A stretch of 64,000 nucleotides of DNA from Bacteroidetes bacterium RIFCSPLOWO2_12_FULL_35_15. GTDB taxonomy: Bacteria > Bacteroidota > Bacteroidia > 2-12-FULL-35-15. Shown here in pieces: positions 3,493 through 63,041 of this stretch. The stretch is from assembly GCA_001769385.1 (NCBI GenBank), contig MEPB01000048.1:21548-85547 (forward strand), read 5' to 3'. A program made the translations under genes and the position numbers. Below the pieces are notes generated by a model, which was not told the origin of the DNA, did no database searches, and saw nothing but the letters and a program-made list of their open reading frames with translations. Position 1 is the stretch's first letter; the number at the start of each line of letters is the position of its first letter.

Positions 3493-5598
3493 ATGAAAAA
3501 AATAGTACTCCTGTTTTTTGTGACTTTTTGCGCACAAAAATTCATTGCACAAGAAAATTTAAAATATTGTGGTGCAGATGAATTACGCATTGCTACGTTA
3601 AAAAAAAATCCAAAAATCGCACAAGCTGTTATCAAGCGAGATGAAGAACTAGAAGCGTTTACACAAAAATATGTTGCCGATTTTTATAATAAAAAGACAC
3701 TATCAGCAACGTATATTATTCCTGTGGTTTTTCATGTCATTCACAACTGGGGAATTGAAAATATTTCGGATGCACAAATTTTAGATGGATTGGATATATT
3801 AAATAAAACGTTTCGTAAACAGTTAGCCGACACAGCTTCCATTGTTTCGGCTTTTAAACCTCTGCATGCCGACTGTGATATTGAATTCAGAGTAGCTCAG
3901 CTGGATCCGAACGGAAATTGTACGAACGGGATCAATCGTATTGCTTCGTCACTGACTACTATTGGCGATCATTCTGTAAAATCAATCATACATTGGCCTC
4001 CGACTAAATATTTGAATGTCTATATTGTTTCAAATGCTGCCGGACTCGCGGGGCATTGTGTTTGGCCGGCTGATGCCGATTCGATCCCTTTGTGGGATGG
4101 AATTGTTATCGGGTATAATTATATAGGAAGCATTGGTACCTCTAACTATACCCAATCTGTAGCATTTGCGCATGAATGCGGACATTATTTGAATTTGCAA
4201 CACATTTGGGGTGGTAATAATGTTCCGAACTTTTATTATTATCCTTGTGCCAATCCCAATAAAGATTGTAATGTGGATGATCTTGTTGCTGATACTCCGC
4301 CTACCATTGGCTGGCAAAGTTGCAATTTATCAGGAGCATCCTGCGGAAATGCAGTTGATAATGTTCAGAATACAATGGATTATTCGTATTGCAATCGAAT
4401 GTTTACTTATGGACAAAAAGCAAGAATGCAAGCTTGTTTAAATTCACCCATTGCAGGAAGAAATAATTTATGGCAAACTGCAAATCTTATTGCAACGGGT
4501 GTTTTAAACCCACCGGGAGGATTGTGTAAAGCCGATTTTACAAGCAATATAAATGTTGTTTGTCAAGGTTCAGGTACTCCAATAGTTTTTACGAATACAT
4601 CCTATAACGGAACATTCACAGACGTTTTGTGGAATTTCCCCGGTGGAACTCCTTCCACATCTGTTTCTAGTAATCCAAATGTTTCGTACGCCACTCCCGG
4701 TACTTATGATGTGACGTTGAAAGTAAAAAATGGAACTGATTCTGTGGAGGTCACAAAAGTAAATTTCATTTCGGTTTTGCCAGCTACAAGTACTGTATAT
4801 CCATTTACCGAAGGATTTGAAACCACAAGCTCATTAAATGGTTTGGAATGGTTCTCGAATAGTTTTGATACGATCAACAACTGGCAACTTAATACAAGTG
4901 CATCTTATAGCGGAACAAGCTCCGTAATGCTTAACAATTATACGAGTCCTGCCGGAACGAAAGACGAATTATTTAGTAAAATGTTAAATTTAACAGGTGG
5001 TTCAGGACTTTACGTCAGTTTTAAATATGCGTATGCAAAAAAAGACAGCACAAGTAATGATCGTCTGCAATTATATATTACAAACAATTGTAATAACAAT
5101 TGGTTGCAACGAATAAATTTAACCGGCACAGCCTTGGAAACAGCGCCAATGCAATCAACACCTTTTGTTCCTGCTTCAACAAACGAATGGAAACAGGCAT
5201 CTGTAATTATTCCTCCGACATGGCTGACCGCAAATTTCAGATTTAAGTTTGTATATACCTCTTCCGCGGGAAACAATGTATATATCGATGACATTAATTT
5301 GAATGTGAATACCGGAATAAGCGATCTGGATGAAATGAGTTCCACCTTTCAATTGTTCCCAAATCCGGCAACTTCAATTGTTACCTTGGGGTTTAAATTA
5401 ACGGAGTCAAAAAAATTAAATATAGCGATACTAAATTTACTTGGACAAACAATTTATTCTTCCGGAAAAGAAAATTATTCTGATGGAGAACATACAATCA
5501 AACTATCTCTCAGGGATATTTCACCCGGGATGTATTTTATAAATGTTGCTGATGACAACAATGACTTTAAAAAACCTTTAGTTATAATTTCAAATTAG
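3493..5598 (+). CDS. Secreted zinc metalloprotease (metzincin, M43/pappalysin-like) with T9SS type-A C-terminal sorting domain
   Basis: HECGHYLNLQH is an HExxHxxxxxH zinc site. There is a signal peptide and a PKD-like segment (WNFPGGTPS). The C-terminus LFPNPATSIVTLGF...GMYFINV is Por-secretion-tail-like. Confidence 0.6.
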   Translation: MKKIVLLFFVTFCAQKFIAQENLKYCGADELRIATLKKNPKIAQAVIKRDEELEAFTQKYVADFYNKKTLSATYIIPVVFHVIHNWGIENISDAQILDGLDILNKTFRKQLADTASIVSAFKPLHADCDIEFRVAQLDPNGNCTNGINRIASSLTTIGDHSVKSIIHWPPTKYLNVYIVSNAAGLAGHCVWPADADSIPLWDGIVIGYNYIGSIGTSNYTQSVAFAHECGHYLNLQHIWGGNNVPNFYYYPCANPNKDCNVDDLVADTPPTIGWQSCNLSGASCGNAVDNVQNTMDYSYCNRMFTYGQKARMQACLNSPIAGRNNLWQTANLIATGVLNPPGGLCKADFTSNINVVCQGSGTPIVFTNTSYNGTFTDVLWNFPGGTPSTSVSSNPNVSYATPGTYDVTLKVKNGTDSVEVTKVNFISVLPATSTVYPFTEGFETTSSLNGLEWFSNSFDTINNWQLNTSASYSGTSSVMLNNYTSPAGTKDELFSKMLNLTGGSGLYVSFKYAYAKKDSTSNDRLQLYITNNCNNNWLQRINLTGTALETAPMQSTPFVPASTNEWKQASVIIPPTWLTANFRFKFVYTSSAGNNVYIDDINLNVNTGISDLDEMSSTFQLFPNPATSIVTLGFKLTESKKLNIAILNLLGQTIYSSGKENYSDGEHTIKLSLRDISPGMYFINVADDNNDFKKPLVIISN

Positions 5599-5636
5599 TG
5601 CTTTTAATACAAGCAAACTTCTTTTTCGTTTACAAT

Positions 5637-7529
5637 TTAATGAGCTCCTTTTTTTATTTCTTCCACAATTGAAGGGTCCAGCAAAGTAGAGGTATCGCCC
5701 AGATTTGATAAATCGCCTTCAGCTATTTTGCGCAGGATACGTCTCATGATTTTTCCGCTTCGTGTTTTTGGGAGGCCTTGTACTACTTGAATTTTATCAG
5801 GTTTTGCAATTGCTCCCATGTTTTTTGTTACGGTTTCAATTATTTCTTTTTTTAAGGCATCAGCATCTTTTCGTTCATGTTCACAAATGACAAACGCATA
5901 AATGCCCCAGCCTTTTATTTCATGAGGGAATCCAACCACTGCAGATTCAACAATATCAGGATGCTGATCAATTGCATTTTCTATTTCTGAGGTTCCTAAT
6001 AAATGTCCTGAAACTTTTATTACATCGTCAACCCGACCTGATATATGGTAATATCCCTCTTCATCGCGTTTGCATGCATCACCTGTGAAATAATATCCTT
6101 TAAATGTTTCAAAATAAGTTTCTTTGCAACGTTTATGATTTTGATAAGTTGTACGAATGATACCCGGCCATGGAAATTTAAAACACAATCTTCCTTCCAC
6201 ATTATTTCCCTGTAATTCTTTTCCCTGTTCATCAAGCAAAATAGGTTGTACTCCCGGTAAAGGAAGTGTTGCAAAACCAGGTTTTGTTTTAGTGATTCCG
6301 GCTAATGGAGAGATCATGATTCCACCGGTTTCTGTTTGCCACCATGTATCCACGATCGGACATTTCTTTTTTCCAATATTTTCGTTATACCAGTTCCATG
6401 CAAATTCATTTATTGGTTCGCCAACAGTTCCCAAAACCTTTAGCGAATCTAATTTATAAGGCTTTACAAAATCCAGACCAAGCGCTTCAAGGGATCTTAT
6501 TGCAGTTGGAGCGGTATAAAAAATAGCTACCTGATGTTTATCAATAACTTGCCAGAATCTTCCAGCATCAGGATAAGTGGGGATTCCTTCAAACATTAAT
6601 GTGGTGCCTCCTGCCAGAAGTGGTCCGTAAACTAAATAGGAGTGACCGGTGATCCAGCCCACATCAGCCGTACACCAAAATATATCGCCATCATTGTATT
6701 GAAAAACATTACGGAATGTATAATCAACAAAAGTCATATAGCCCGCTATTGTATGCACAACTCCTTTTGGTTTTCCGGTGGAGCCGGAAGTGTATAATAT
6801 GAAAAGCATATCTTCTGCATCCATTATTTCGGCAGGACAATCAGCGGAACTGTTTTTAATTTCATCCTGCCACCAAACATCACGTCCGCTTTCCATCTTT
6901 ACTTCGGTATTTATATGTTTATATACAATCACTTTTTTAACCGAAGGACAAGTTAATAAGGCTTCATCAATAACATTTTTCAATGGAATTTCTTTTGCTC
7001 CACGATACGCACCATCTGAAGTAATGACCACGTTACAATCGGCATCATGAATTCTATCAGAAAGTGATTTAAAAGAAAAACCACCAAATACCACTGAGTG
7101 AATAGCTCCGATTCTCGCACATGCCAAAACCGCTATTGTTAATTCAGGAATCATGGGCATATAAATACAAATGCGGTCGCCTTTTTTTGCACCATTTTTT
7201 TTCAGCACATTTGCAAATCGACATACTTCTGAATGAAGTTCTTTATACGTGAATTTTCGTACTTCATCTTCTGGATTATTAGGTTCCCAAATGAGTGCAG
7301 TTTGATTTCCTCTTTTTTCAAGATGGCGATCAAGGCAGTTTTCGGTGATATTGAGTTGTCCGCCAATGAACCATTTTATACTTGGCTCATCAAAATTCCA
7401 CTCCAACACGTTATCCCATTTTTTATGCCAGGTAAATTGTTCAGCTTGCTCTGCCCAAAAGGCTTCAGGAGTTTCAACACTACGTTTGTATTCCTGCTGA
7501 TATTGCTCAAAAGATGTAATACGGTTCAT
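5637..7529 (-). CDS. acs: Acetyl-CoA synthetase (acetate--CoA ligase)
   Basis: Full-length 630 aa product. Motifs YTSGSTGKPKGV, WWQTETGG and a C-terminal PKTRSGKIMRR are canonical Acs. Confidence 0.95.
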   Translation of the reverse strand: MNRITSFEQYQQEYKRSVETPEAFWAEQAEQFTWHKKWDNVLEWNFDEPSIKWFIGGQLNITENCLDRHLEKRGNQTALIWEPNNPEDEVRKFTYKELHSEVCRFANVLKKNGAKKGDRICIYMPMIPELTIAVLACARIGAIHSVVFGGFSFKSLSDRIHDADCNVVITSDGAYRGAKEIPLKNVIDEALLTCPSVKKVIVYKHINTEVKMESGRDVWWQDEIKNSSADCPAEIMDAEDMLFILYTSGSTGKPKGVVHTIAGYMTFVDYTFRNVFQYNDGDIFWCTADVGWITGHSYLVYGPLLAGGTTLMFEGIPTYPDAGRFWQVIDKHQVAIFYTAPTAIRSLEALGLDFVKPYKLDSLKVLGTVGEPINEFAWNWYNENIGKKKCPIVDTWWQTETGGIMISPLAGITKTKPGFATLPLPGVQPILLDEQGKELQGNNVEGRLCFKFPWPGIIRTTYQNHKRCKETYFETFKGYYFTGDACKRDEEGYYHISGRVDDVIKVSGHLLGTSEIENAIDQHPDIVESAVVGFPHEIKGWGIYAFVICEHERKDADALKKEIIETVTKNMGAIAKPDKIQVVQGLPKTRSGKIMRRILRKIAEGDLSNLGDTSTLLDPSIVEEIKKGAH

Positions 7530-7649: not shown

Positions 7650-8540
7650 GTTGTAGTATGGTACGCAGATTTAGCGGATTGTTTAAGATTTAAAATGATT
7701 TTTTGTAGGTGATTGTATAAGGATATTCTGTGTTGAAGCACTTTGTAGTATGGTACGCAGATTTAGGGGAGAGTTTAAGATTTAAAAATGATTTTTGTTG
7801 CTGATTATTATAGGATATTCCGTGTTGAAGTACTTTGTGGTATGGTACGCAGATTTAGCGGATTGTTTAAGATTTAAAAATGATTTTTGTTGCTGATTGT
7901 TCTAGGATATTCCGTGTTGAAGTACTTTGTAGTGTGGAACGCAGATTTAGGGGAGAGTTTAAGATTTAAAATGATTTTTTGTAGGTGATTGTATAAGGAT
8001 ATTCTGTGTTGAAGTACTTTGTAGTATGGTACGCAGATTTAGCGGAGAGTTTAAGATTTAAAAATGATTTTTGTTGCTGATTATTATAGGATATTCCGTG
8101 TTGTACTTTGTGGTATGGTACGCAGATTTCGCGGATAGTTTAGGATTTTAAAATGATTTTTGTTGATGATTGTTATATGATTTCTGTATTGAAGATTGTT
8201 ATAAGATATTCCGTGTTGAAATACTTTGTAGTATGGTACGCAGATTTCGCGGATAGTTTAAGATTTAAAAATGATTTCTGTATTGAAGATTGTTATAAGA
8301 TATTCCGTGTTGAAATACTTTGTAGTATGGTACGGAGATTTCGCGGATAGTTTAAGATTTAAAAATGATTTTTGTTGCTGATTGTTATATGATATTATGT
8401 GTTGAAGATTGTTATAGGATATACGTTATTGAAATTCGCATTTTGAATGATCTTAATTTATTATAAAGTCCTAACTAACATTTAAATCTTATCATTTTTT
8501 TATCATAAAAATCTTAATAAATCTGCGTCCGATCGAATCA
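7650..8540. repeat. Tandem array of ~8 direct repeats (unit ~92 bp, one 118-bp variant) with a terminal inverted partial copy
   Basis: Copies of the unit containing tatggtacgcagattt start near 7657, 7749, 7841, 7934, 8025, 8114, 8232 and 8326. An inverted partial copy aaaaatcttaataaatctgcgtcc lies at ~8505-8530. The 65-aa ORF at 8153-8350 is repeat-derived. Confidence 0.85.
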
Positions 8541-9417: not shown

Positions 9418-9897
9418 TTAATGCGCCCTCTTTTCTTTTATTTCTATTTGTCTTTTAATGCTTTCTTCTAAAGAAATAAATGTTTCTGTACGCTGCACCC
9501 CTTTTATTGTTTGGATATGTTCATTTAACACTTCTCTCAAATGCTGGGTATCCCGACAAATTATTTTTGCAAACATACTATAAACTCCGGTTGTATAATG
9601 CAATTCGACAACTTCCGGGATCTTTTTCAATCGACTGACGGCATCATGGTATTCAGATCCTTTATCTAAAAATATTCCTAAAAATGCACAAACATCATAA
9701 CCAACTTTTGCCGGATTAATTTCTAAGTGAGAGCCCCGTACAACTCCGGTGTCAATTAATTTTTTCATTCGAACATGGACTGTTCCTGCTGATACAACTA
9801 ATTCTTTTGCAATTTCTGTGTAAGGAATTGTGGAGTCCTTCATCAGCATAGAAAGAATTTGTCTGTCTAATTTATCAAGTTGAAAATTTTGCGCCAT
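9418..9897 (-). CDS. asnC: Lrp/AsnC family transcriptional regulator
   Basis: N-terminal HTH (LDRQILSMLMKDSTIPYTEIAKEL) plus a RAM domain. It is divergent from the asnA-like gene. Confidence 0.8.
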   Translation of the reverse strand: MAQNFQLDKLDRQILSMLMKDSTIPYTEIAKELVVSAGTVHVRMKKLIDTGVVRGSHLEINPAKVGYDVCAFLGIFLDKGSEYHDAVSRLKKIPEVVELHYTTGVYSMFAKIICRDTQHLREVLNEHIQTIKGVQRTETFISLEESIKRQIEIKEKRAH

Positions 9898-10042
9898 TTA
9901 AGGATGTGTATTTTACGACAAATGTAAAAAAAATATTGTTATATTATTATATTACTAATAATATGTTCAATTTGTTGAATATTTAATAATGTAAGGTTAT
10001 ACCATTTATCTTTGCCAAAGAAATTAAATAGAAAAAATAAAA

Positions 10043-10996
10043 ATGGAAACAACAATTTTAGAAAAAACGACCATGTTATCAGAAACATTAAAAAAAATCA
10101 AACGCCCTGAATTAAAGGATATCCTTAAAATTCAACAAGGCATTATCAGAGCAACGCATGAATTCATGCATAAAAAAGATGTAGTACAGCTTATGCCTAT
10201 AATGTTATCTGCAATTACCGACCCTTTGAATCATAGTGTTGTTGACGCTTCAATTAACTATGCAGACCAAAAATGGAGCTTAACAAAATCAATGATCTTT
10301 CATAAGCAATTAGCTTTAATAAACCCTTCGCTTGATGCCATTTATATTGTTTCTCCAAATGTTAGGTTAGAGTCGAAAGACCGTGCCGGTACCGGAAGAC
10401 ATTTATTTGAATTTACCCAGGTAGATTTTGAATTTAAACGAAAAGATAAAGAATTTGTAATGGCTTTTATGGAAGAACTGATTGCTTTTGTTTTTGATTC
10501 TTTGAACAAGCAGCTTCCGGAAATCATTATTAAATTAAGAGGAGAGTTGCTTCCTGTTTTTAAGAAATTAATAACATACAGAACGGAGGAATTGGAAGCA
10601 GAATTGGGTGAAGATTATGAATTTAAAAAATCAAAAGAAAGTCTGGAACCTTTTTGGTTAGTAAATCATAAACGCGAATTTTACGACAAAGAAGATATGT
10701 CGAAACCAGGAACATTTTTAAACTATGATATTATTTGGCCGGAAGGTTATGGCGAAGGTTTATCCGGTGCAGAACGTGAATATGAATATACACAAATTTT
10801 AAAACGGATGGAAGAAACCGGAACTAATAAAGAAGTGTTTAAAGATTATTTATCTGTTGCAAAACAAGAGGGGTTTATTCCAACAGCCGGTGCAGGGTTT
10901 GGCGTAGAACGGATGACACGTTATATTTGCCAATTAAAAGATGTTGACGAAGTCACTGTGTTTTCAAGAAAACCATATAGTGAATTGATGTTTTAA
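10043..10996 (+). CDS. asnA: Aspartate--ammonia ligase (asparagine synthetase A, AsnRS-catalytic-domain-like)
   Basis: Class II aaRS-like motifs (HLFEFTQVDFE, GAGFGVERMTRYI) are present without an anticodon-binding domain. The product is ~317 aa. It is divergently paired with an AsnC regulator, as at the E. coli asnC-asnA locus. Confidence 0.5.
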   Translation: METTILEKTTMLSETLKKIKRPELKDILKIQQGIIRATHEFMHKKDVVQLMPIMLSAITDPLNHSVVDASINYADQKWSLTKSMIFHKQLALINPSLDAIYIVSPNVRLESKDRAGTGRHLFEFTQVDFEFKRKDKEFVMAFMEELIAFVFDSLNKQLPEIIIKLRGELLPVFKKLITYRTEELEAELGEDYEFKKSKESLEPFWLVNHKREFYDKEDMSKPGTFLNYDIIWPEGYGEGLSGAEREYEYTQILKRMEETGTNKEVFKDYLSVAKQEGFIPTAGAGFGVERMTRYICQLKDVDEVTVFSRKPYSELMF

Positions 10997-11549: not shown

Positions 11550-12839
11550 TTATTTCAAATCGTATTTCTTTTTATACTTTTCGTAAAGCTTTTTTTGATC
11601 ATTGTTCAGATCAATACTAATTCCTTTTATAAAAGCAAGTTCCACATTATTTGTCCGCATATCCAACACATCACCGGTTGAAATAAAAAGTGTTGCATCT
11701 TTTCCTGCTTCTATACTTCCGGTTGAGTTATCTATCCCTAAAATTTTTGCAGTACTCAATGTAATTGCTTTTAAGGCTTGTTCTTTTGTTAGTCCGTATG
11801 CCGCAGCTGTACCGGCCATAAATGGCAAGTTGCGTGTTTCCATAGCTTCCATGTCTCCTGAGTTATCTAAACAAAAAAGTACTCCTGCTTGTTGTAATAA
11901 GTACGGAAGTTTATAAGGCAGATTAACATCATCTTCCGGATGTTCAGGCAAACTATGAACTCGTGCAACAATTACCGAAATATAATTCTCACGCAACAGA
12001 TCAGTTACCATCCAACTATCTTTGCCGCCAACAACAGTAGTTTTTTTAATTCCATTTTGTTTCGAAAAATTTACTGCCTCAATTATTTCTTTTGCATTAT
12101 CGGTATGTATAAATAATGTTTGTGTTCCATTGAAAAGACCTTTCATTGCTTCGAATCGAAGGTTTTTTTCTTCGACTACTTCTGTTTCATTATACGCTTT
12201 TGCATCGAAAAAAAGTTTTTTCAGATCAGCGGTTTGTTTAGTGTAATTTTTATTTTTTTCATACGGTCCAGGGTAAATATTGTCTTCGTCCAGATACTTA
12301 CGGATCTGCATTTTTGGCCAATTCAGATGTATGCCATCGTCAATTTTATAAGCGGCATCTTCCCAGTTCCAGCCATCTAACTTAACAATACTTGAAGTGC
12401 CGGAGATTATTCCTCCTCGAGGTGTTATCTGAGCTAATAAAACACCATTGGTTCTTACTGTTGAAATAATCTTTGAATCTGTATTGTATGCGATCAATGA
12501 ACGAACATTTGGTAAGGTGGAGCCAACTTCTTTAAAATCACTAGTTGCACGTATCGATTCCATTTCAATTAAACCTAAAGTAGAATTGGGAGAAATAATT
12601 CCCGGATAAATGTGCTTGCCTGTTGCATCTATTTTTTCATCATAGTTGCCGAGTTCGACTTTCGTTTTTGAAGCATCAATTACTTCGGTTATTTTACCGT
12701 TTTTTATTCCAATGTAGGAATTTTGAATAACACTGTCGGTTCCTAAATGAGCTATTCCATTCATGAGCAAAATGCTTTTTGTTTGAGCACTAGCGGTGAT
12801 GGTGATAAATGTGGTTAGGAGTAAAAAAAATTTTCTCAT
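11550..12839 (-). CDS. Amidohydrolase family protein (metal-dependent hydrolase), secreted
   Basis: Signal peptide and an amidohydrolase fold signature (IDATGKHIYPGIISPNSTLGL). 429 aa. Confidence 0.7.
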   Translation of the reverse strand: MRKFFLLLTTFITITASAQTKSILLMNGIAHLGTDSVIQNSYIGIKNGKITEVIDASKTKVELGNYDEKIDATGKHIYPGIISPNSTLGLIEMESIRATSDFKEVGSTLPNVRSLIAYNTDSKIISTVRTNGVLLAQITPRGGIISGTSSIVKLDGWNWEDAAYKIDDGIHLNWPKMQIRKYLDEDNIYPGPYEKNKNYTKQTADLKKLFFDAKAYNETEVVEEKNLRFEAMKGLFNGTQTLFIHTDNAKEIIEAVNFSKQNGIKKTTVVGGKDSWMVTDLLRENYISVIVARVHSLPEHPEDDVNLPYKLPYLLQQAGVLFCLDNSGDMEAMETRNLPFMAGTAAAYGLTKEQALKAITLSTAKILGIDNSTGSIEAGKDATLFISTGDVLDMRTNNVELAFIKGISIDLNNDQKKLYEKYKKKYDLK

Positions 12840-12859
12840 GGTTTGGTTTATATATACTG

Positions 12860-13310
12860 GATATTATGGTACGCAGATCTTTTAGGATTTTTAAGATTAA
12901 AAATGATTTTGTTTTATTCTATAATTATGATTTTAGGTTTTGACTGTTTTATATACTTGGTATTATGGTACGCAGATCTATATGAATTTTTATGATTTAA
13001 AATGATTTGGTTTTATGTTATAATTATGATTTTAGGTGTTGGCTGTTTTATTTAGTTGGTATTATGGTACGCAGATCTATATGAATTTTTATGATTTAAA
13101 ATGATTTGGTTTTATGTTATAATTATGATTTTAGGTGTTGACTGTTTTATATACTTGGTGTTATGGTATGCAGATCTTTTAAGATCTTTAAGATTAAAAA
13201 TGATTTTGTTTTATGCTATAATTATGATTATGATTTTATGTATTGACTGTTTTATATACTTGGTATTATGGTACGCAGATTTATTAAGATTTTTAAGATC
13301 AAAAAAGATT
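12860..13310. repeat. Tandem array of 5 direct repeats (~99 bp unit) of the tatggtacgcagat family
   Basis: Unit starts are near 12863, 12961, 13060, 13159 and 13264. The 82-aa ORF at 13101-13349 is a repeat artefact. Confidence 0.85.
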
Positions 13311-13311
13311 T

Positions 13312-13731
13312 TTATGTTGTTGAGGTTAAGATTATTTTATGTTTCTTGAATTCGTTGGAAAGAACCTTTCTTTTGTATTGTGGCTCTGTTCCAAAATTAA
13401 GAAGTAAGCCAACTTCCATCTCTGTTGCCCTTAAATAGTTGACTAACTGGATTTCATGTTCAATGATAATTTCTTCAACAGCCTTTAATTCAATCACTAT
13501 AAGATTTTCTACAACAATATCTGCAAAATAGGAACCCACAACTTCCCCTTCATAATAAACAGTTATTGGTTTTTGTTTTTCGCATTTTAGTTTCAACTTT
13601 TTTAACTCGATAGTTAATGCATTTTCATAAACTTTTTCATAGAATCCATAACCAATCGTGTTATAAACATTAAAAAATGCTTTTAATATTAGTCCTGTAA
13701 TTCCAGAATGTTTAAAGTTGTCATCCATCAT
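13312..13731 (-). CDS. GxxExxY family protein (PD-(D/E)XK nuclease-like)
   Basis: 139 aa. Contains G-F-Y-E-K-V-Y-E-N-A (GxxExxY) and the acidic/lysine residues IVVENLIVIELKA. It is flanked by the repeat array and its inverted copy. Confidence 0.7.
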   Translation of the reverse strand: MMDDNFKHSGITGLILKAFFNVYNTIGYGFYEKVYENALTIELKKLKLKCEKQKPITVYYEGEVVGSYFADIVVENLIVIELKAVEEIIIEHEIQLVNYLRATEMEVGLLLNFGTEPQYKRKVLSNEFKKHKIILTSTT

Positions 13732-17662: not shown

Positions 17663-17717
17663 TTAGTGGTTAGGAATTGTTTAAATTTCTTAAAAATAAT
17701 TTATTAGTATCAAAAGT

Positions 17718-17805
17718 GTCATTCCCACCCTAGCGGAGGAATCTTTATATTTTTAAGCACAATGGTAATCAAGTAAAAAGATTTCTCGACTTCGCTCGAA
17801 ATGAC
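17718..17805. repeat. REP/MITE-like hairpin element (gtcattYcgaNcg...gagaaatc family)
   Basis: Inverted arms gtcattcccaccctagcggaggaatcttt and aaagatttctcgacttcgctcgaaatgac. Confidence 0.7.
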
Positions 17806-17911
17806 AATGTCCTTAAAAGAGAATGTTTTACTAAAATTTATAACAGCGTCTTAATAGAGGTAAGTTTGGGAAAGCACAGAACAATCAATAACTATAACTG
17901 GCAACTGAAAG

Positions 17912-19114
17912 ATGTACGATACCTCAAAGAAAAAAGAAACAGCCATTTTGGTTGGATTGATCAATAAAAGTCAGGATGAAGAAACGGTTGTTGAATATCT
18001 TGATGAGTTAGCTTTTTTGACTGAAACAGCCGGTGCGGATGTTGTGAAGCGTTTTACACAACGATTGGAACATCCTGATTCCCGTACATTTATTGGTTCC
18101 GGAAAATTAAATGAGGTCCGTAATTTTGTTCTTGAAAACAAAATTGATATTGTAATATTCGATGATGAACTTTCTCCTGCTCAACAACGGAATCTGGAGA
18201 AAGAAATAAATTTAGAGAAAGAAATTAAAATAAAAGTAGTTGATCGTACCCGGTTGATCCTCGATATTTTCGCTTCCCGTGCTCGTACTGCACATGCAAA
18301 AACACAAGTTGAATTAGCACAATCTATTTATTTATTACCGCGCCTCACCAAAATGTGGGACCACTTGGATCGTATCAAAGGTGGTATCGGGATGAAAGGA
18401 GCAGGGGAATCCGAAATTGAAACCGACAGACGTATTGTTCGTGATCGGATATCTTTACTGAAAGATCGCTTGAAGACCATCGACAGACAGATGGAAACAC
18501 AACGCAAAAGTCGTGGTGAAATGATACGCATTGCGTTGGTTGGTTATACCAATGTTGGTAAATCTACCATCATGAATATGTTGAGCAAAAGTGATGTGTT
18601 TGCCGAAAATAAATTGTTCGCCACATTAGATACAACAGTAAGAAAAGTAGTAATTGAAAATTTACCTTTCTTGCTTTCAGATACCGTTGGGTTTATCCGT
18701 AAATTGCCTACAACACTTGTAGAATCATTCAAATCAACCTTAGATGAAGTACGTGAGGCGGATATTTTAATTCATGTGGTGGATATTTCCCATCCGGGTT
18801 TCGAAGATCAAATTAATGTGGTAAATCAAACCTTAAGTGATATTGGTGCCGGGGATAAACCTATAATTCTGGTGTTTAATAAAATTGATGCCTTTACTTT
18901 TGAAGAAAAAGAAGCAGATGATCTGACCCCTATTACAAAAAGTAATTTAAGTTTAAATGATCTGAAAAAAACATGGATGAATAAATTGCAATCCGAGTGT
19001 TTGTTTATTTCTGCTACTAACAAACTGAATATTGATGAATTCAAAAAAGTGGTGTACGAAAAAGCAAAAGAGCTTCATCTGAAACGTTATCCATATAATA
19101 ACTTTTTGTATTGA
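17912..19114 (+). CDS. hflX: GTPase HflX
   Basis: HflX N-domain, G1 motif GYTNVGKST and DTVGF. 400 aa. Confidence 0.9.
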   Translation: MYDTSKKKETAILVGLINKSQDEETVVEYLDELAFLTETAGADVVKRFTQRLEHPDSRTFIGSGKLNEVRNFVLENKIDIVIFDDELSPAQQRNLEKEINLEKEIKIKVVDRTRLILDIFASRARTAHAKTQVELAQSIYLLPRLTKMWDHLDRIKGGIGMKGAGESEIETDRRIVRDRISLLKDRLKTIDRQMETQRKSRGEMIRIALVGYTNVGKSTIMNMLSKSDVFAENKLFATLDTTVRKVVIENLPFLLSDTVGFIRKLPTTLVESFKSTLDEVREADILIHVVDISHPGFEDQINVVNQTLSDIGAGDKPIILVFNKIDAFTFEEKEADDLTPITKSNLSLNDLKKTWMNKLQSECLFISATNKLNIDEFKKVVYEKAKELHLKRYPYNNFLY

Positions 19115-19143
19115 TTGGAGTTTGTGATGATTTGTTTCGGGAT

Positions 19144-19270
19144 GTCATTCCGACCGAAGTGGAGGAATCTTTATATTTATTCGCATAATTGTAAAAAGTA
19201 AAAAGATTTCTCCACTTCGGTCGAAATGACATTTAGGAACTGTCATTTCGACTGTAAGGAGAAATCTCAT
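19144..19270. repeat. REP/MITE-like hairpin element (1.5 units)
   Basis: Arms gtcattccgaccgaagtggaggaatcttt and aagatttctccacttcggtcgaaatgac, plus gtcatttcgactgtaaggagaaatctcat. Confidence 0.75.
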
Positions 19271-19431
19271 ATTGAATTCTATAATCATAAAAGCGCGTGG
19301 TCACTTCGAGTTCGACCGGAGGGAGAGTATCGAGAAGAAGAGGGAAAAAAATGAATCCAAACATGTTCTTAATACACTTTCCTGAAAAAGAAAGGTTAAC
19401 GAACCCAAAACCTGGATTATGAATAAATAAA

Positions 19432-22083: not shown

Positions 22084-22848
22084 TTATTTTTTCTTGCCGA
22101 AACCAAAACCAATACCAAACTCTACTCCGTAAGAATAAAGATAGAGTTTATGATACCAAGCATCATCACCCAGTGCACTGTCACGATGTGAAGTTAGAAA
22201 ACCAGTAAATGTTGGTTTAAGACTTAGAATCACATTCTGCTTTGTATAATAATTTAATCCTATACTACCATTGCCACTGAGATAATTGGAAAAACTAAAA
22301 GCTTCTCTTTCGTAAGTCGAAACAACTCCTATATGTTTTATCACACTTCTTGAAATATTGTAATAATTAATGCCTAAGGCGAAAGTGGCATAAAGCCTTT
22401 TTGATAATTCAAACTCTCCATTCATTAGTAATGGAATTCCAATTAAATAATAATTCATTTTATATGTACGATAGTCATAATAATTTATTTGACCATATTT
22501 ATCATACGAAATGTAATATAAAAACCTTTTTGTATAATATCCTTTGTTTTCAAGTATTAAACCAGTCTGAATGAAAAAATGTTTGGCACACTTATATGAT
22601 AATAGTGTTGAAGCGTGCCAACCTATTTTTGGAATTTGATCAGATGTTTTATAACCAACACCAGAACTGTTGATTGGCGGTTCTGCAATTTTATGACTTA
22701 TTCTATAGTTATAGTCTGGTGAAAATAAAAAATTTAAAGCCCATTTTGATTCCTTGGTCACTTGCATATTTGTCGAATCTTGCGCCAACAATGAATGCCA
22801 AATAAAAATACAATAAACTAAAATTAAGAATTTTTTCATCATCGCCAT
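22084..22848 (-). CDS. Outer-membrane beta-barrel (porin-family-like) protein
   Basis: Signal peptide and alternating aromatic beta-strand pattern with a C-terminal F/G-rich strand. The start codon overlaps the upstream ORF's stop (ATGA). Confidence 0.5.
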   Translation of the reverse strand: MAMMKKFLILVYCIFIWHSLLAQDSTNMQVTKESKWALNFLFSPDYNYRISHKIAEPPINSSGVGYKTSDQIPKIGWHASTLLSYKCAKHFFIQTGLILENKGYYTKRFLYYISYDKYGQINYYDYRTYKMNYYLIGIPLLMNGEFELSKRLYATFALGINYYNISRSVIKHIGVVSTYEREAFSFSNYLSGNGSIGLNYYTKQNVILSLKPTFTGFLTSHRDSALGDDAWYHKLYLYSYGVEFGIGFGFGKKK

Positions 22849-24056
22849 TAATTTAATATGAGTTTGCCAATGTGGGTAATGCCTTTACAATTAACTACTT
22901 TGATTATATATATTCCCTTTGGATGATCTGTAAGATCAATTGAAATATTTTGATTTTCAGAAGCAATAACCTGTTTTTTCCAAATACAATTTCCTAAAGT
23001 ACCATATACATAAATTCCAGAATCTAATTTATCGCTGAATTGCAAAGTAAATATTCCTGTGGTTGGATTAGGATAAATTTTAAACACCCCATCTTCCTTT
23101 TCTTCAATATTAATAGCATTTAACAGTGTTACTTTACGGTTATCGGAGCTGTCGCAATTGAGAACCACAATTTGTTCGGTAAGGGTATCTGTAATTCCAT
23201 TATTATCATTTATTATTAATGTTGTCATGTAGGTACCGGGGGTATTGAAAAATACTTTTGGATGTGCAAGTTGGGATGTTGTGCCATTTCCAAAATCCCA
23301 ATGATAACTATACAGCGTACCTAAAGTATCATCGCCAAATAATCCATCAAAACTTAGTGTATCATTGGGGCAATCCAACGTATCTGTATCTGTTTTTGTT
23401 TCAGATAATTCTTTTGCCCCATTGAGATAAATTTTATATGCGTAATCATCTGCATAGCTAAACATATCGTGAACATCTATCTTTAATTTTCCCGACAAGG
23501 TTGTCATGTAAGTATTAGAATGATAATTTGAAACTGCCCCGTACGAGCTAAGCTGACGCGTTTTGCTTTTTTGTGCGGCAGGGCTTAGGTTGTTTTTAAT
23601 TTCTGTTAAGCTTTGCTTACAAGATGTTTCAAATCGTTCATCAAGTTTTATTGGTCCGTTTTCATAAGCACTACTCATTCTCCATTCATTTGGTTGATTT
23701 ACAAAACCTGCTTCAACAGGATTAGAATGAATGTAATCGACTTTTTGTTGGATCATTTTATTGCTATATAAAAAGAAAGGATGGTTATCATGTTTCCAAA
23801 ATTGCATGCCTTGTTTTTGTGGACTATGCTTTCCATAAAATTCGAATTGATAAAGCATCCATTCTTTTCTGCTCTCTTGAGGATTTTCAGTAATTGCTTT
23901 CAATAATTTTTTTGCTGTAAAAGATTTCAAATCTCTTAAACTATTCGAAATTTCACCGTTTTCAGAATACGAAATAAAATGAACATGGCTTGGCATGATG
24001 CAATAACAATATATTTTCAGATTTTTTATTTTTCTGGCAGTACTGAATACTTTCAA
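22848..24056 (-). CDS. Chimeric ORF: IS200-like/RAYT HUH tyrosine-transposase domain read through into PKD domain + T9SS type-A CTD
   Basis: N-terminal YCIMPSHVHFI (HuH) ... YIHSNPVEAGFVNQPNEWRMSS is RAYT-like. Downstream are YHWDFGNGTTS (PKD) and KIYPNPTTGIFTLQF...GIYIIKVV (CTD). Confidence 0.55.
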   Translation of the reverse strand: MKVFSTARKIKNLKIYCYCIMPSHVHFISYSENGEISNSLRDLKSFTAKKLLKAITENPQESRKEWMLYQFEFYGKHSPQKQGMQFWKHDNHPFFLYSNKMIQQKVDYIHSNPVEAGFVNQPNEWRMSSAYENGPIKLDERFETSCKQSLTEIKNNLSPAAQKSKTRQLSSYGAVSNYHSNTYMTTLSGKLKIDVHDMFSYADDYAYKIYLNGAKELSETKTDTDTLDCPNDTLSFDGLFGDDTLGTLYSYHWDFGNGTTSQLAHPKVFFNTPGTYMTTLIINDNNGITDTLTEQIVVLNCDSSDNRKVTLLNAINIEEKEDGVFKIYPNPTTGIFTLQFSDKLDSGIYVYGTLGNCIWKKQVIASENQNISIDLTDHPKGIYIIKVVNCKGITHIGKLILN

Positions 24057-24171
24057 TTAAAATTTCCTGATATTCTCTTCTTGTAAAAACATCAATCCAT
24101 CCAGCAACACTAAAACTTACAAAATATAAACCCGTGCTATCTGTTTTGTATTTCTCTGACATAGAAAACAA
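23600..24171 (-). mobile_element. IS200/IS605-family Y1 (REP-associated tyrosine transposase-like) gene, frameshifted
   Basis: The N-terminal 69-aa ORF 23962-24171 (GLYFVSFSVAGWIDVFTRREY...) and the rest in another frame overlap at 23962-24056. T-homopolymer runs lie at ~24010-24030. Confidence 0.6.
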
Positions 24172-24321
24172 ATTTAGTAAAAATGAAATTTAAACTTTTA
24201 CTTCAACCATTTTCTTTCGTAAGCAGCGCTTACAGACAACAAAAAACACGAAGTAGCTATACACGAGCTTGCACTCGAACTTCGCGCTTACTGTTTTTCT
24301 ATACCTTAATGGCCTATGGGG

Positions 24322-39693: not shown

Positions 39694-39728
39694 AAAAGGA
39701 GCTTCAATTTTTGAAGCTCTTTTTTTTG
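39694..39728 (+). terminator. Rho-independent terminator after accC
   Basis: ggagcttcaatttttgaagctc stem followed by T8. Confidence 0.6.
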
Positions 39729-39874
39729 CACTAACTTTTTCAATTAGAAATTCCAATTAGAAATTCCAATTTGAAGGAGCTATTTCATCAGCTGTCTTTG
39801 CTAAAAACCTGAGTTCGATAACTTGATATAAATATCATTAAATATTAATAGACGGAGGATATTATTTCGGAACT

Positions 39875-40105
39875 GTCATTTCGAACGAAATGAAATGAAG
39901 AGAGAAATATCATTTTGCGAAGAAGAGATTTCTCCCTCTGGTCGAAATGACATTTAGGAAAGTCATTTCGAACGAAATGAAGAGAGAAATCTCATTTTGC
40001 GAAGAAGAGATTTCTCCCTCTGGTCGAAATGACTTTAGGAAAGTCATTTCGAACGAAATGAAATGAAGAGAGAAATCTCATTTTTGCAAAGAAGAGATTT
40101 CTCCC
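39875..40105. repeat. Tandem cluster (~3 units, ~75 bp each) of the REP/MITE-like hairpin family
   Basis: The unit gtcatttcgaacgaaatgaa(atgaa)gagagaaatctcattttgcgaagaagagatttctccctctggtcgaaatgac is repeated. The 72-aa ORF 40063-40281 is repeat-derived. Confidence 0.8.
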
Positions 40106-42455: not shown

Positions 42456-45400
42456 ATGAAAAAAATAATACTAATTAACTGTCTTATATTCTTAAGTATT
42501 ATAAAAGCATTTGCACAACCCGCTAATGACGGTTGTGCCGGAGCTCAATCTGTTACACCTGATGGAACCTGTGTTGCAGGGACTACTGTAGATGCTACTG
42601 ATGGCTGGACGGGAAGTGTCGGTTGTCAATCCGGAGCTAGTCATCCGGAGGTTTGGTACTCTTTTGTTTCCACTGGAACGCAAGCAAGTTTCACAATTAC
42701 AAATGGTACAATGACTGGAAATATTGAGTTGGTTTTAGTTGAATCCTCTGGTCCTTGTGCCGGGCTGGCTTTAACAGGATCCTCTTGCGGAGCTTCTCCT
42801 TTAAGTGCTTCGTTTAATGGTTTGGTGATCGGTACAACCTATTATTATACCATTTCTTCTTCTACTTCTTCGCTTGGAACTTTTACAACTTGTGTAACCA
42901 CATCCAATCCTCCTCCGGTCTCCGGACAAGATTGTGGAAATGCTGCAATATTATGTAATAACAATCCTTTTTCACAGGGTACCTCAAGTGCTGGTGCAGG
43001 AGCTGTTTTTGGAAATGCTTCTAATGAAAATTTATCTGCATTGGGTTGTTTGGCATCTGATGAGCGTCAATCAAAATGGTATAAATTTACCATAGGTTGT
43101 ACAGGTACCATAGAGTTTTTAGTGGATCCTAATGATAATGCAAATGACTATGATTGGGCTGTTTATGATATTACTACTTCCGGTTGTGCATTAACTCCAG
43201 GTGGCGCAGCTGCAGGAGGAGCAACCCAGGTAGCTTGTAATTACAGTGGTTGTCCTGGAAATACAGGGATTCTGAATCCTTTAACGGATCCATGTACGAT
43301 AACTAATTATACAACATGCGAAGCGGCCGGAGGGCCCGGTAATTGCAGTGGTGCTGATATTGGTCAGTTTAGTATTGCACCTCCGACTCTTACTGCTGGC
43401 CATACGTATGCATTAATTATTGATAACTTTTCTCTTTCAAATGCAGGATTCGCATTCTCTTGGTTAAGTGGTGGAACAGCAACTATTGGACCTGATGCAA
43501 ATTATACGTATGCAAATCCATCCTGTGGCGTGTTTAATTTTACTAAATCGTGTGCTACAATTAATTCAACTTTTCTTTGGACCTTTGGTGATGGAGGAAC
43601 TTCAACTTTACAAAATCCTTCACATACTTATGTAACCGGTGGAACTTACATAATTTCTTTACAAGTTACGGACGCTCTTGGTTGTATTAATACAAGCAGC
43701 CAAACAGTTGCTTTTTTAACACCGCTAGCAACAGCTACTCCGGCATCACAAAGTATTTGTTCGGGTACATCTACTTCTATTGCATTAAGTAGTACTGTAA
43801 TCGGAACAACTTATGCCTGGACTGTTAGCGAAACTGGTGTTTCAGGAGCCAGTGCCGGAAGCGGTTCTTCTATTGCCCAGACATTGACTTTAACAGGAGC
43901 TGTTGCCGGAACTGCAACATATACGATTACTCCTACAGCTGCCGGTTGTGTTGGTGCAACAATCACGGTTACAATTACTGTCAACCCTAGTGCTACCATC
44001 GTACTTTCTTCTGCTGTTGGTACAAATGCGCAAACAGTTTGTGCATTAGCAGCAATTGCAAATATTACTTATACTGTTGGCGGAGCTGGAACTGGTGCAG
44101 GTGTTACCGGTTTGCCTGCTGGCGTTACCGGAGCATTTGCAGGAACGACATTCACTATCAGCGGTACACCAACAGCAACCGGAACTTTTAACTATGTTGT
44201 TACAACTACCGGAACCTGTACTCAGGCAACAGCAACCGGAACTATTATCGTGAATCCCAATGCGACAATTACACTAACTTCAGCTGCAGCTACAACAGCT
44301 CAGACGCTTTGTGTAAGTACAGCAATTACAAATATTACATACACAGTTGGTGGAGGTGGAACAGGTGCAGGGGTAACAGGTTTACCGGCTGGCGTAACAG
44401 GTTCTTTTGCAGGCGGTGTTTTCACAATCAGCGGCACTCCTACTGCAACAGGCACGTTTAATTACACGGTAACAACAACAGGAAGTTGCACGCAGGCAAC
44501 AGCACTCGGAACAATAACGGTAAACCCGAATGCCAGCATAACTTTAACATCCGCAGTAGGTTCTAATGCACAAACTATTTGCTTAACATCACCTGTCACA
44601 ACTATTACCTATACAGTTGGTGGTGGTGGAACCGGAGCTGGTGTAACAGGTTTGCCGGCAGGTGTATCAGGTTCTTTTGCAGGAAGTACATTTACGATCA
44701 GCGGAACTCCAACTGCAACAGGTACATTTAACTATGTAGTAACAACTACCGGAACCTGTACACAGGTTACCGCATTAGGGACTATCATTGTTAATCCGAA
44801 TGCGACAATTACCTTAACGTCTGCAATAGCTACTACAGCACAGACTCTTTGTGTAAGTACAGCAATTACAAATATTACATATACCATTGGTGGAGGTGGA
44901 ACAGGTGCAGGGGTAACAGGTTTGCCGGCCGGGGTAACAGGTTCTTATGCAGGTGGAATTTTCACAATCAGCGGCACTCCTACCGCAACAGGCACTTTTA
45001 ATTATACAGTAACAACAACGGGAACCTGTACCCAGGCAACAGCGCTGGGAACAATAACGGTAACCCCGAATGCAACCATAACTTTAACATCCGCAGTAGG
45101 TACCAATGCACAAACTATTTGCTTAACATCACCTGTCACAACGATTACCTATACGGTTGGTGGTGGTGGAACCGGTGCAGGTGTGACAGGTTTACCTGCA
45201 GGTGTAACGGGTTCTTTTGCCGGAAGTACATTCACGATCAGCGGAACACCAACAGCAACAGGTACATTTAACTATGTAGTTACAACTACCGGAACCTGTA
45301 CGCAGGTTACCGCATTAGGGACTATCATTGTTAATCCGAATGCGACAATTACCTTAACGTCTGCAATAGCTACTACAGCGCAGACTCTTTGTGTAAGTAC

Positions 45401-50305: not shown

Positions 50306-51373
50306 ATGAAAACAAAAAACGAAATGGCTGTCCTGACAATTAAAAAGGCATTTTTTATTGCTGTATTAGTAGGATTAGTTAATTATGTTCCTGCAATAGC
50401 ACAGGATATTCACTTTTCGCAATTTGATGAAACCCCATTGCAATTGAATCCTGCAAATGCAGCTGTGCGGCACGAAATATCTGTAATTGCCAATTATAAA
50501 AATCAGTGGCAAAGTGTTGGGGCGCCTTATAAAACATTTGCATTTTCAGGAGAAGTTAAATTATTAAAAAAGAAAAAACAAAACCTTGGATTAGGAATTG
50601 ATTTTTTTAATGATAAAGCCGGTGATTCACAAATGGGAACTACTCAGGCAAATTTATCTCTTTCAGGAATTATTCCGCTTAATTCTAAAAGTCTTATTTC
50701 CGGTGGATTAATGTGTGGCTTTGCACAACGTACCATGACAAGCGGAAAACTTAGTTGGGGAAAACAATATAACGGAATGGACTATGATGCAAGTTTGCCA
50801 ACCGGTGAAATAAGTTCTGTTAGTAATTATACCTTTCTTGATCTTGGTGCCGGAGTACAATATAGCTATGGTACACATGAAATGTATATCTCTGCCAATG
50901 ATGCAAGAAAGATAAATATTGGAGTGTCTGTTTTTCACCCGCATCAACCGGCCTATTCCTATTATGGAGATAAGTCGCAAAGATTGCACATGAAACTAAT
51001 ATTTCATGGTGATGCAGCATTGGGAATAAAAAACACAAACCTGATATTAAAACCTTCTTATATTATTTTCATACAAGGAGCAACAAAAGAAATAACACCC
51101 GGTATGACCTTCCAGTATGTTTTACAGGAGTCCTCAAAATATACGGGCATCAAAAAAGCTTCTGCTGTTTCTCTTGGTGCTTATTATCGAACACAAGATG
51201 CATTTATAGCAATAGTAAAGTATGAATATTCAAATTATGCAGTCGGATTTAGTTACGATATTAATCTTTCAAAATTAAAAACAGTTTCTTCTGCTCGTGG
51301 CGGATTCGAAATTTCTTTACGATTTATTGCCCCTGCTGCTTTTGGTAAAAGCACTTCAAGAGCAAGGCTATAA
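50306..51373 (+). CDS. sprF: PorP/SprF family type IX secretion system membrane protein
   Basis: N-terminus AQDIHFSQFDETPLQLNPANA is the PorP/SprF signature. ~355 aa beta-barrel. Positioned directly after the type-B CTD adhesin. Confidence 0.8.
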   Translation: MKTKNEMAVLTIKKAFFIAVLVGLVNYVPAIAQDIHFSQFDETPLQLNPANAAVRHEISVIANYKNQWQSVGAPYKTFAFSGEVKLLKKKKQNLGLGIDFFNDKAGDSQMGTTQANLSLSGIIPLNSKSLISGGLMCGFAQRTMTSGKLSWGKQYNGMDYDASLPTGEISSVSNYTFLDLGAGVQYSYGTHEMYISANDARKINIGVSVFHPHQPAYSYYGDKSQRLHMKLIFHGDAALGIKNTNLILKPSYIIFIQGATKEITPGMTFQYVLQESSKYTGIKKASAVSLGAYYRTQDAFIAIVKYEYSNYAVGFSYDINLSKLKTVSSARGGFEISLRFIAPAAFGKSTSRARL

Positions 51374-57358: not shown

Positions 57359-57427
57359 AGATTGTTTAAATTTTATTCAAATGTATTATATGTCACTCCT
57401 TCGACTTTGCTCAGAATAAATTCCAGA

Positions 57428-57483
57428 AGAAATCTCATTTCTAGCTTAATTTTATTGAGATTTCTCCCTCTGGTCGAAATGAC
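57428..57483. repeat. REP/MITE-like hairpin element
   Basis: gaaatctcatttc...gagatttctccctctggtcgaaatgac. Confidence 0.6.
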
Positions 57484-57581
57484 AGAATGGTTAAAAATAT
57501 TGTAATTAGATTCTTTTATTAAATTTTAACAGGCTCTTAATTTCAAATTTAATTGTGCCTTTTCATTTTCATATAGTGGAC

Positions 57582-57604
57582 GAGCGTCCAGTTTTTTGAA
57601 GATT
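57582..57604 (+). terminator. Possible terminator hairpin
   Basis: gtggacgagcgtccag palindrome followed by T6. Confidence 0.4.
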
Positions 57605-62721: not shown

Positions 62722-62761
62722 GGGGCTGTTTAATATTTCAATTGCATAAATTGTATGATCT

Positions 62762-62790
62762 GTCATTTCGAACGTAGAGAGAAATCTCAT
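62762..62790. repeat. REP/MITE-like half-element
   Basis: gtcatttcgaacgtagagagaaatctcat. Confidence 0.6.
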
Positions 62791-62973
62791 TTTATGATAA
62801 TTACATTGAGAATCTTTCGGACTTTATCCTGAGCAAAGTTGAAGGGTTCAACATGACAGGATGGTTACAATAAACTTGATATAGATCTTGCTTCTTATTC
62901 AAATGGATTTTATTTGTATAAAATATTTGTAATACCATTTGCCATTATAAAATGGTCTAATTTGAATTGCCGG

Positions 62974-63041
62974 GCACGTTTCTCGACTCCGTTCGAAATG
63001 ACTAGCGCGCAGTCATTTCGAGCGGAGTCGAGAAAGTGTGC
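62974..63041. repeat. REP/MITE-like hairpin element (near-perfect palindrome)
   Basis: gcacgtttctcgactccgttcgaaatgact, then the spacer agcgcgc, then agtcatttcgagcggagtcgagaaagtgtgc. Confidence 0.7.

Follow-up and report, generated by a model that had tools for sequence, protein, structure and literature searches.

A 64,000-nucleotide (nt) stretch of the uncultured Bacteroidia bacterium RIFCSPLOWO2_12_FULL_35_15 (assembly GCA_001769385.1, contig MEPB01000048.1, positions 21,548 to 85,547), hereafter called the window, carries a family of dispersed, strand-oriented hairpin repeats of ~25 nt, referred to herein as units. Taken as a whole, the best explanation, and one that is probably correct, is that these units belong to a known class, described both as CGTC/TGTC-tagged repetitive extragenic palindromes (REPs) and as Ssn-related motifs (SRMs) of the Neisseria Transformation Sequence (NTS) type, and that they are read by an Ssn-type GIY-YIG nuclease encoded elsewhere. 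Each unit follows the layout (T/C)GTC-A-N4-GA-[N1N2-GNA-N2'N1']-GA-N4'-T-C, in which an unpaired (T/C)GTC tag precedes a 5-bp stem (an A-T pair and four covarying pairs), a tandem G·A/A·G step, two more covarying pairs and a GNA triloop, and a conserved C lies directly 3' of the stem. TCTGTCATTTCGACCAGAGGGAGAAATCTCA, with its GTC tag, G·A step and 3' C, is one such sequence. A pseudogene of the RAYT transposase family that lies in the same window is unrelated to the units.

The structure was deduced from units collected with the pattern GTCA-N4-GA-N7-GA-N4-TC, which fixes the spacing and does not impose pairing. Among the 135 distinct unit sequences obtained in this way, the N4 segments are Watson-Crick complementary at four of four positions in 128, both inner pairs are complementary in 112, and the loop reads GNA in 96. 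In an alignment of 63 units (A1), 98% of the cells of the named structure are paired, and cells in which both partners have changed number 91, compared to 26.5 in shuffles, none of 500 of which reached the observed value. Sliding the register reduces pairing to 17-58%. The invariant columns are GTC (63/63 aligned units, preceded by T or, less often, by C), the A-T and T-A pairs, the two G-A dinucleotides, and the C after the stem. Elsewhere, Watson-Crick pairs stand in place of the G·A/A·G step (GA/TC in 39 cases, TG/CA in 7, GG/CC in 7, CC/GG in 6 and CG/CG in 4), and the members of this kind include the NTS-like GTCATTCCCGCGAAGGCGGGAATC. The step is thus a position of the stem.

A covariance model trained on unrelated copies (R1) recognized 12 units in the window at E<0.02. 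The C that follows the stem (C28 of A1) is found in 11 of these 12 strong units, the exception being the unit at 39875-39910. Six additional copies, decayed or variant, were identified by direct reading of the sequence, and R1 gave partial matches to only three of them (Table 1). The head motif GTCATTYCGA occurs 13 times in the window, as against 0.26 +/- 0.46 expected, and 0 of 100 shuffles reached 13. The family was proposed to occupy six loci, always in intergenic DNA, and both statements were borne out: units are present at all six, and every unit falls in one of five intergenic regions. The window has a G+C content of 35.7%, is 13.3% intergenic, and encodes type IX secretion (T9SS) sorting domains; the nearest relatives of its proteins bear the label "Bacteroidia bacterium". 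An Rfam scan gave 0 matches at the gathering score and only generic hairpins (miRNA precursors) in E-value mode, and a literature search with the literal repeat sequence returned no relevant result.

Selection acts on the unit hairpin and not on a two-arm palindrome of ~90 nt, because the covariation lies inside the unit and partner units are often unlike. Over all fetched loci, to which the dimer counts refer, 104 dimers carry their tags outside and 28 carry them inside, single units are also common, and 65 of the 104 tags-outside dimers join unlike stems. The original prediction held that the second arm complements the first in each copy, and that the hairpin is selected as in REP/BIME elements. 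A selected, REP-like structure does exist, but it is the ~25-nt unit, and the compensatory changes are located inside each arm instead of between arms. The arms complement each other only at 19144-19230, where 2 of 27 positions differ, and roughly at 62978-63036; at 17718-17805, 8 of 27 differ. Moreover, the two differences at 19144-19230 constitute a compensatory pair within the unit. Both there (locus 2) and at 17718-17805 (locus 1), C7-G22 in one arm stands opposite T7-A22 in its partner, so that in a long hairpin C would stand mismatched against A, and G would pair with T. Likewise, the 30-40-nt loop that had been described applies to loci 1 and 2 (34 and 33 nt), while the other loci have 15-22 nt between their arms.

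The units are widespread. The exact pattern GTCATTTCGA-N(6-26)-GAGAAATCT turned up in 76 stretches from IMG/VR and in at least 120 from GTDB genomes, with exact unit copies in at least 15 phyla. The Bacteroidota hosts include Pedobacter, Mucilaginibacter and Bacteroidales. Further hosts belong to Clostridia, Nitrospirota, Desulfobacterota, Chloroflexota, Verrucomicrobiota, Planctomycetota, Omnitrophota, Spirochaetes, Acidobacteria, the Candidate Phyla Radiation (CPR) lineage Uhrbacteria, Coriobacteriia and Proteobacteria.

Two bodies of earlier work describe repeats of this kind. Di Nocera, De Gregorio and Rocco (2013, BMC Genomics 14:522, PMC3733652) defined a superfamily of REPs tagged with CGTC, TGTC or CCTC, in which a stem of 8-9 positions starting with A-T and T-A is closed by a 4-5-nt loop and followed by a 3-nt tail. 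Its members, Neisseria dRS3 and Rickettsia RPE-4 and RPE-6 among them, occur in Proteobacteria, Chlorobi, Bacteroidetes, Spirochaetes and Thermotogae, lie 3' of genes in intergenic DNA, form predominantly tags-outside ('HH') dimers, and frequently form heterodimers (PMC3733652). No transposase is linked to the superfamily, not even in species with RAYTs, and those RAYTs are not flanked by its repeats (PMC3733652). The present units resemble these REPs in the unpaired CGTC/TGTC tag, the A-T/T-A first pairs, a stem of ~9 positions (two being G·A here), the short loop and the short 3' tail, which has the form C-T-N here. They likewise share the predominance of tags-outside dimers, the frequent heterodimers, the 3' intergenic location, the presence in Bacteroidetes, and the lack of a transposase beside them. 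When the ORFs (open reading frames) near units in 196 loci were clustered all against all, no recurrent neighbour emerged, the largest cluster of small ORFs being a phage protein. The differences are a 3-nt GNA loop in place of 4-5 nt, the two stem positions that are G·A and not Watson-Crick, and a tandem cluster in the window, clusters having been called rare (PMC3733652). The match is made at the level of the superfamily and not to one of its four families.

More recently, Chenal et al. (2025, Nat Commun 16:2388, PMC11893778) showed that SsnA, a single-domain GIY-YIG nuclease of ~100 amino acids (aa; CDD cd10448, GIY-YIG_unchar_3), binds and cuts the 28-nt NTS (CGTCATTCCCGCGMAVGCGGGAATCYRG), which contains dRS3. 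SsnA acts on the tagged strand only and only as single-stranded DNA (ssDNA), neither double-stranded DNA nor RNA being a substrate; cleavage is governed by the three bases upstream of the palindrome, and binding by the C just after it (PMC11893778). Genes for Ssn proteins are typically flanked by SRMs, which are hairpins of 20-50 nt; among genomes with over 200 motifs, 81% have a gene for a homologue, and Ssn activity in Neisseria restricts incoming ssDNA during transformation (PMC11893778). The units agree with SRM/NTS repeats in being oriented hairpins, dispersed in hundreds of copies, that have an HGTC tag on their upstream side and a C directly behind the palindrome; the invariant columns of A1 coincide with the SRM cleavage tag and the SRM binding C. 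They also agree in the small single-domain GIY-YIG genes with repeats on both sides (loci L159 and L290, and NTS-matching at L292 and L293, as described below). They differ in the tandem G·A step and the AT-rich stem of the window units, and in that the window, which comes from an uncultured Bacteroidia bacterium, contains no ssn gene.

The association with GIY-YIG genes was approached from two directions, by fetching loci for their units alone and by fetching GIY-YIG homologues regardless of repeats. In the first set, small GIY-YIG ORFs adjoin units in three or four loci, and they match PF01541 with E values of 1e-15 to 1e-17. A Mucilaginibacter metagenome-assembled genome (MAG; L159) has such a gene with units on both sides, tags outward, and a Flavobacteriales MAG (L151) has a unit dimer upstream of its gene. 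In L193 the nearest detected units are ~0.9 kb from the GIY-YIG ORF. In L125 the ORF is a partial match, and its immediate flanks carry a different, GTCAC-type hairpin. This last gene (L125 7141-7740, also from a Flavobacteriales MAG) is frameshifted, and the flanking repeat GGTCACTTCGATACAATTTTACTCCTGCGTCACAAAATCRCTCAGTGACC resembles a decayed GTCACTTCGA copy at window 19300.

In the second set, GTCATTTCGA-type units lie on both sides of a GIY-YIG homologue in the chromosome of M. ginsenosidivorax (Mucilaginibacter, accession CP042437; L290) and adjoin the homologues in L286 and L289. Homologues from IMG/VR, which are 38-44% identical, are flanked by related tagged hairpins. These are TGTCATTCTGAGCGAAGCGAAGAATCT, a tandem-G·A unit of the TTCT stem type, on either side of the gene in L294 (43% identical), units that match the published NTS/SRM pattern in L292 and L293 (e.g., TGTCATTCCCGCGCAGGCGGGAATCCAG), other GC-rich TGTCAT hairpins on both sides in L297 and L300, and longer GTCAT-tagged repeats in L291, L295, L296, L298 and L299. 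The published SRM expression matches one stretch each in L297, L298 and L300. Altogether, tagged hairpins lie within ~150 nt of the gene at 13 of 13 homologue loci. R1 finds 11 matches per 37 kb around GIY-YIG genes and 6 per 507 kb in a control set of 80 HflX-orthologous Bacteroidota loci, a difference of about 25-fold. Judged from these sequence contexts, a small GIY-YIG nuclease of the Ssn type is indicated as the cognate protein family.

Several results weigh against this assignment. No GIY-YIG gene was found in the window by hidden Markov model or tblastn searches, and the ~17 kb beyond both of its ends contain no called GIY-YIG gene and no further units. The published SRM motif, HGTCWYN(0-2)YYVSBRHN(0-5)WNVSBRGN(0-2)RNCYNB (PMC11893778), matches nothing in the window and not one of 145 tandem-G·A units, since an S is demanded at the place where the units have the A of G·A. 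Finally, the hairpin of a single unit is only marginally stable by nearest-neighbour calculation (-2.6 kcal/mol as DNA, z about 0). Such models give no credit to GNA triloops, as in d(GCGAAGC), or to tandem sheared G·A pairs, both of which are unusually stable; this may explain the low energy computed for single units.

By analogy with SsnA, the hairpin of a unit would be exposed on the tagged strand when the DNA is single-stranded, bound by an Ssn-type GIY-YIG nuclease of ~100 aa with a single domain, encoded elsewhere in the genome, and nicked just upstream of the tag. Incoming or replicating ssDNA may be the target, as in Neisseria transformation. In 3' intergenic DNA, the units are gathered as tags-outside inverted pairs and as tandem clusters.

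A bolder version of this assignment, which we consider rather unlikely though worth stating, is that the nuclease both reads and spreads the hairpins. The units and the nuclease would then form an ssDNA homing or transposition system, similar to RAYT/REPIN with an unrelated catalytic fold, in which the tandem-G·A/GNA class represents a separate and very widespread specificity group missed by SRM searches. Features consistent with spread driven by Ssn are lineage-specific gains, genes flanked by inverted units, the spacer ATTTAGGAA and an 82-nt module. This spacer is common to the tags-inside arrangements of loci 2 and 3, and the module is repeated in tandem at locus 3 (39875-40105, after accC), where long units of 31-36 nt are paired with short ones of 26 nt. 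The conservation of tags-inside spacers suggests copying of composite modules and not of single units. The 82-nt module, the spacer and the IS-like order of motif, ssn gene and motif would all fit either an amplification module by module or a mobility that depends on Ssn.

Table 1. Units in the window, with the matching interval and E value of R1 where the model gave one

Position	Strand	Sequence	R1 match	Description
17718..17744	+	GTCATTCCCACCCTAGCGGAGGAATCT	17715-17746+, E=0.018	TTCC/GGAA stem variant with decayed centre; left half of tags-outside dimer upstream of hflX
17779..17805	-	GTCATTTCGAGCGAAGTCGAGAAATCT	17777-17808-, E=8e-7	Right half of this dimer; 34-nt spacer
19144..19170	+	GTCATTCCGACCGAAGTGGAGGAATCT	19141-19172+, E=4.5e-6	TTCC/GGAA stem
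19204..19230	-	GTCATTTCGACCGAAGTGGAGAAATCT	19202-19233-	Long hairpin possible with 19144-19170
19242..19267	+	GTCATTTCGACTGTAAGGAGAAATCT	19239-19269+, E=7e-8	Third at the locus; preceded by tags-inside spacer ATTTAGGAACT
19300..19331	+	GTCACTTCGAGTTCGACCGGAGGGAGAGTATC	Partial, E=0.39	Decayed; head with 1 mismatch
39875..39910	+		39872-39912+, E=0.0015	Long; expanded centre, tail ATAT not ATCT; opens the tandem cluster of three dimers (82-nt module) that follows accC
39926..39951	-	GTCATTTCGACCAGAGGGAGAAATCT	39924-39954-, E=4.6e-8	Short
39962..39992	+		39959-39994+, E=4.5e-4	Long
40008..40033	-	As 39926-39951	40006-40036-, E=1.9e-6	Short
40043..40078	+		40040-40080+, E=5.9e-4	Long
40095..40105	-	AGATTTCTCCC		Truncated short unit; the tail is the remaining part
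57392..57435	+	GTCACTCCTTCGACTTTGCTCAGAATAAATTCCAGAAGAAATCT		Decayed long partner
57458..57483	-	GTCATTTCGACCAGAGGGAGAAATCT	57456-57486-, E=1.4e-8	Short, as at locus 3; between convergent genes
62762..62787	+	GTCATTTCGAACGTAGAGAGAAATCT	62759-62789+, E=1.6e-8	
62808..62857	-	CTTCRACTTTGCTCAGRATAAA		Decayed long partner; the sequence given is common to it and 57392-57435
62978..63002	-		Partial, E=3.3	Variant; diverged tail without conserved T-C; left of tags-inside pair
63012..63036	+		Partial, E=2.3	Variant; diverged tail; right of tags-inside pair, spacer TAGCGCGCA

The spacers between tags-inside neighbours are conserved across distant loci, ATTTAGGAACT at 19231-19241 being accompanied by ATTTAGGAAA at 39952-39961 and TTTAGGAAA at 40034-40042. 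The two decayed partners at 57392-57435 and 62808-62857 have an inner segment in common (CTTCGACTTTGCTCAGAATAAA and CTTCAACTTTGCTCAGGATAAA, respectively), which points to a separate 'long' subtype, the partner of the short GTCATTTCGACCAGAGGGAGAAATCT form.

The copies in the window are lineage-specific, since close relatives whose HflX is 86% identical have no units around hflX, and the gap between the cytochrome c gene and hflX measures 3-40 bp in them, as against 249 bp here. A search among related loci for empty sites that would mark insertion borders gave no clean filled/empty pair. The comparison of L285 with L283 shows replacement rather than insertion, and four assemblies of strains differ in the hflX region by 2 single-nucleotide polymorphisms and a scaffold gap only. 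Contig k141_2980285 of ENA ERZ4903185 has an identical HflX region, and contig k141_742198 of ERZ27254836 contains the right end of the window. The gap downstream of hflX is a hot spot for repeats in relatives: L206 has another tandem hairpin family there (GCAACCCTGAAAGGGTTGA, at 5200-5650), L285 has a TTGC-type unit dimer (2297-2378), and L283, which is 97-99% identical to L285, has in its place 658 bp that contain a small ORF on the reverse strand (5181-5840).

The position of the units could suggest that they are mainly RNA elements of 3' untranslated regions, which stabilize the 3' ends of mRNAs or attenuate read-through, the link to Ssn being secondary. We regard this alternative as unlikely. 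Units occupy 3 of the 7 convergent, 2 of the 30 co-directional and none of the 7 divergent (promoter) gaps of the window, and each of the five regions lies 3' of one gene or more. For CGTC-tagged REPs, the same bias in position was taken as an argument for RNA roles (PMC3733652). Dimers also fold well as RNA at locus 2, where the long hairpin of 19144-19230 reaches -51.5 kcal/mol (z -12), compared to -28 kcal/mol (z -8.9) as DNA; at loci 1 and 3 the folds are far weaker (z -2.7 to -2.9 as RNA). However, covariation preserves the small unit and not the long hairpin, the partners differing in most tags-outside dimers as noted above, G·U accounts for just 6 of 441 cells in A1, and SsnA is inactive on RNA (PMC11893778). 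Moreover, the bias itself may reflect selection against insertion into promoters and genes. The units had also been said to lie often at convergent or terminator positions. In a scan of the window, no hairpin-plus-T-run site overlapped any unit, the terminator-like sites at 39699-39719 and 57577-57590 being separate. A role of the units as intrinsic terminators (a GC-rich hairpin followed by a T-run) is accordingly not indicated.

The original prediction had pointed instead to a RAYT-like transposase at 23.6-24.2 kb, and thus to REP/REPIN elements mobilized by it. The units do resemble REPs, in that a tag precedes the hairpin and that they occur in inverted pairs and clusters, and a gene of the Y1/RAYT family is indeed present, on the minus strand at 23640-24320. 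Nonetheless, it is a broken pseudogene (Y1_Tnp). Near 24030, an A-run has gained one A, which causes a +1 frameshift, and the stop codon has been lost through the loss of one base, so that the frame continues into a neighbouring gene with a PKD domain and a T9SS tail. The outcome is an ORF (22848-24056) in which a partial Y1_Tnp match is fused to PKD and T9SS domains. Once corrected, the protein has 175 aa; its homologues, of ~177 aa, number more than 1000 and reach 85% identity. It resembles the Bacteroidetes RAYT subclass 2.6 of Quentin et al. (2018), which is characterized by an HVH motif, a YIHSNP motif and a length of ~179 aa.

Three intact homologues of this RAYT (L001, L004 and L007, around 9600-10900) are classic REPtrons, that is, each lies between its own REPs. 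Their flanks carry, in inverted orientation, a canonical GTAG-tagged REP of another kind (GTAGGCGCTAAGCnnnnGCTTAGTGAC) together with GTAAGCnnnnGCTTAC, and zero GTCATTTCGA units occur within +/-10 kb, which argues that the RAYT is not the partner of the present family. An inverted REPIN arrangement of the units around the window RAYT had been suggested as a check; its flanks carry decayed remnants of GTAGGCGCTAAGCnnnnGCTTAGTGAC and GTAAGCnnnnGCTTAC, and no unit lies within 4 kb. In addition, none of 156 unit-containing loci has a RAYT. The family is nevertheless comparable to GTAG REPs, BIMEs and REPINs in its small tagged hairpin, its inverted doublets with conserved spacers and its clusters, and in the occurrence of a protein that acts in trans and whose gene lies between repeats of its own. 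It differs in the tag, (T/C)GTC instead of GT[AG]G, and in the enzyme, a GIY-YIG nuclease instead of an HUH Y1 transposase. Given also that the class of Di Nocera et al. is without transposase association (PMC3733652), mobilization of the units by this RAYT is very improbable.

That the units are miniature inverted-repeat transposable elements of a DDE-type insertion sequence, with the outer GTCATTTCGA as terminal inverted repeats, is scarcely credible: pairs of ~90 bp with inverted ends and the lineage-specific gain beside hflX are in its favor, but the borders of dimers show no visible target-site duplication, single units and tags-inside pairs are common, no transposase recurs near units, and covariation within units over at least 15 phyla is unexpected for terminal inverted repeats.

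The window contains other repeats as well. Two ORF-free tandem arrays (7651-8406, with a period of 92-94 nt and ~8 copies, and 12846-13312, with a period of 99 nt and ~4.6 copies) have a common core, TATGGTACGCAGAT..TTTAAGATTTAAAAATGATTTT, and lie directly upstream of the minus-strand genes 5637-7529 and 11550-12839. At 51147-51880, the 3' end of gene 50306-51373 carries a direct duplication of 327 nt with 98% identity, accompanied by three copies of a 51-nt element with the hairpin GGCAGGATGCCGG; contig k141_2980285 of the public assembly ERZ4903185 ends at ~51543 in window numbering, inside this duplication. An ORF of 2570 aa (42456-50168) contains ~13 tandem repeats of 270 nt and 5 of 243 nt, 60-93% identical, which presumably encode repeated domains.

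Apart from the tandem-G·A form and the correction concerning RAYT, the family is an ordinary dispersed repeat. The correction removes a tempting error, that of reading a REP near a RAYT as a REPIN. The more general meaning is that a repeat family of Bacteroidia finds its probable place within the recently described Ssn/SRM system, in a tandem-G·A, AT-rich form. Common in Bacteroidota and also represented in many further phyla, this form goes unseen by the published SRM pattern, and censuses of Ssn/SRM pairs thus probably undercount them.

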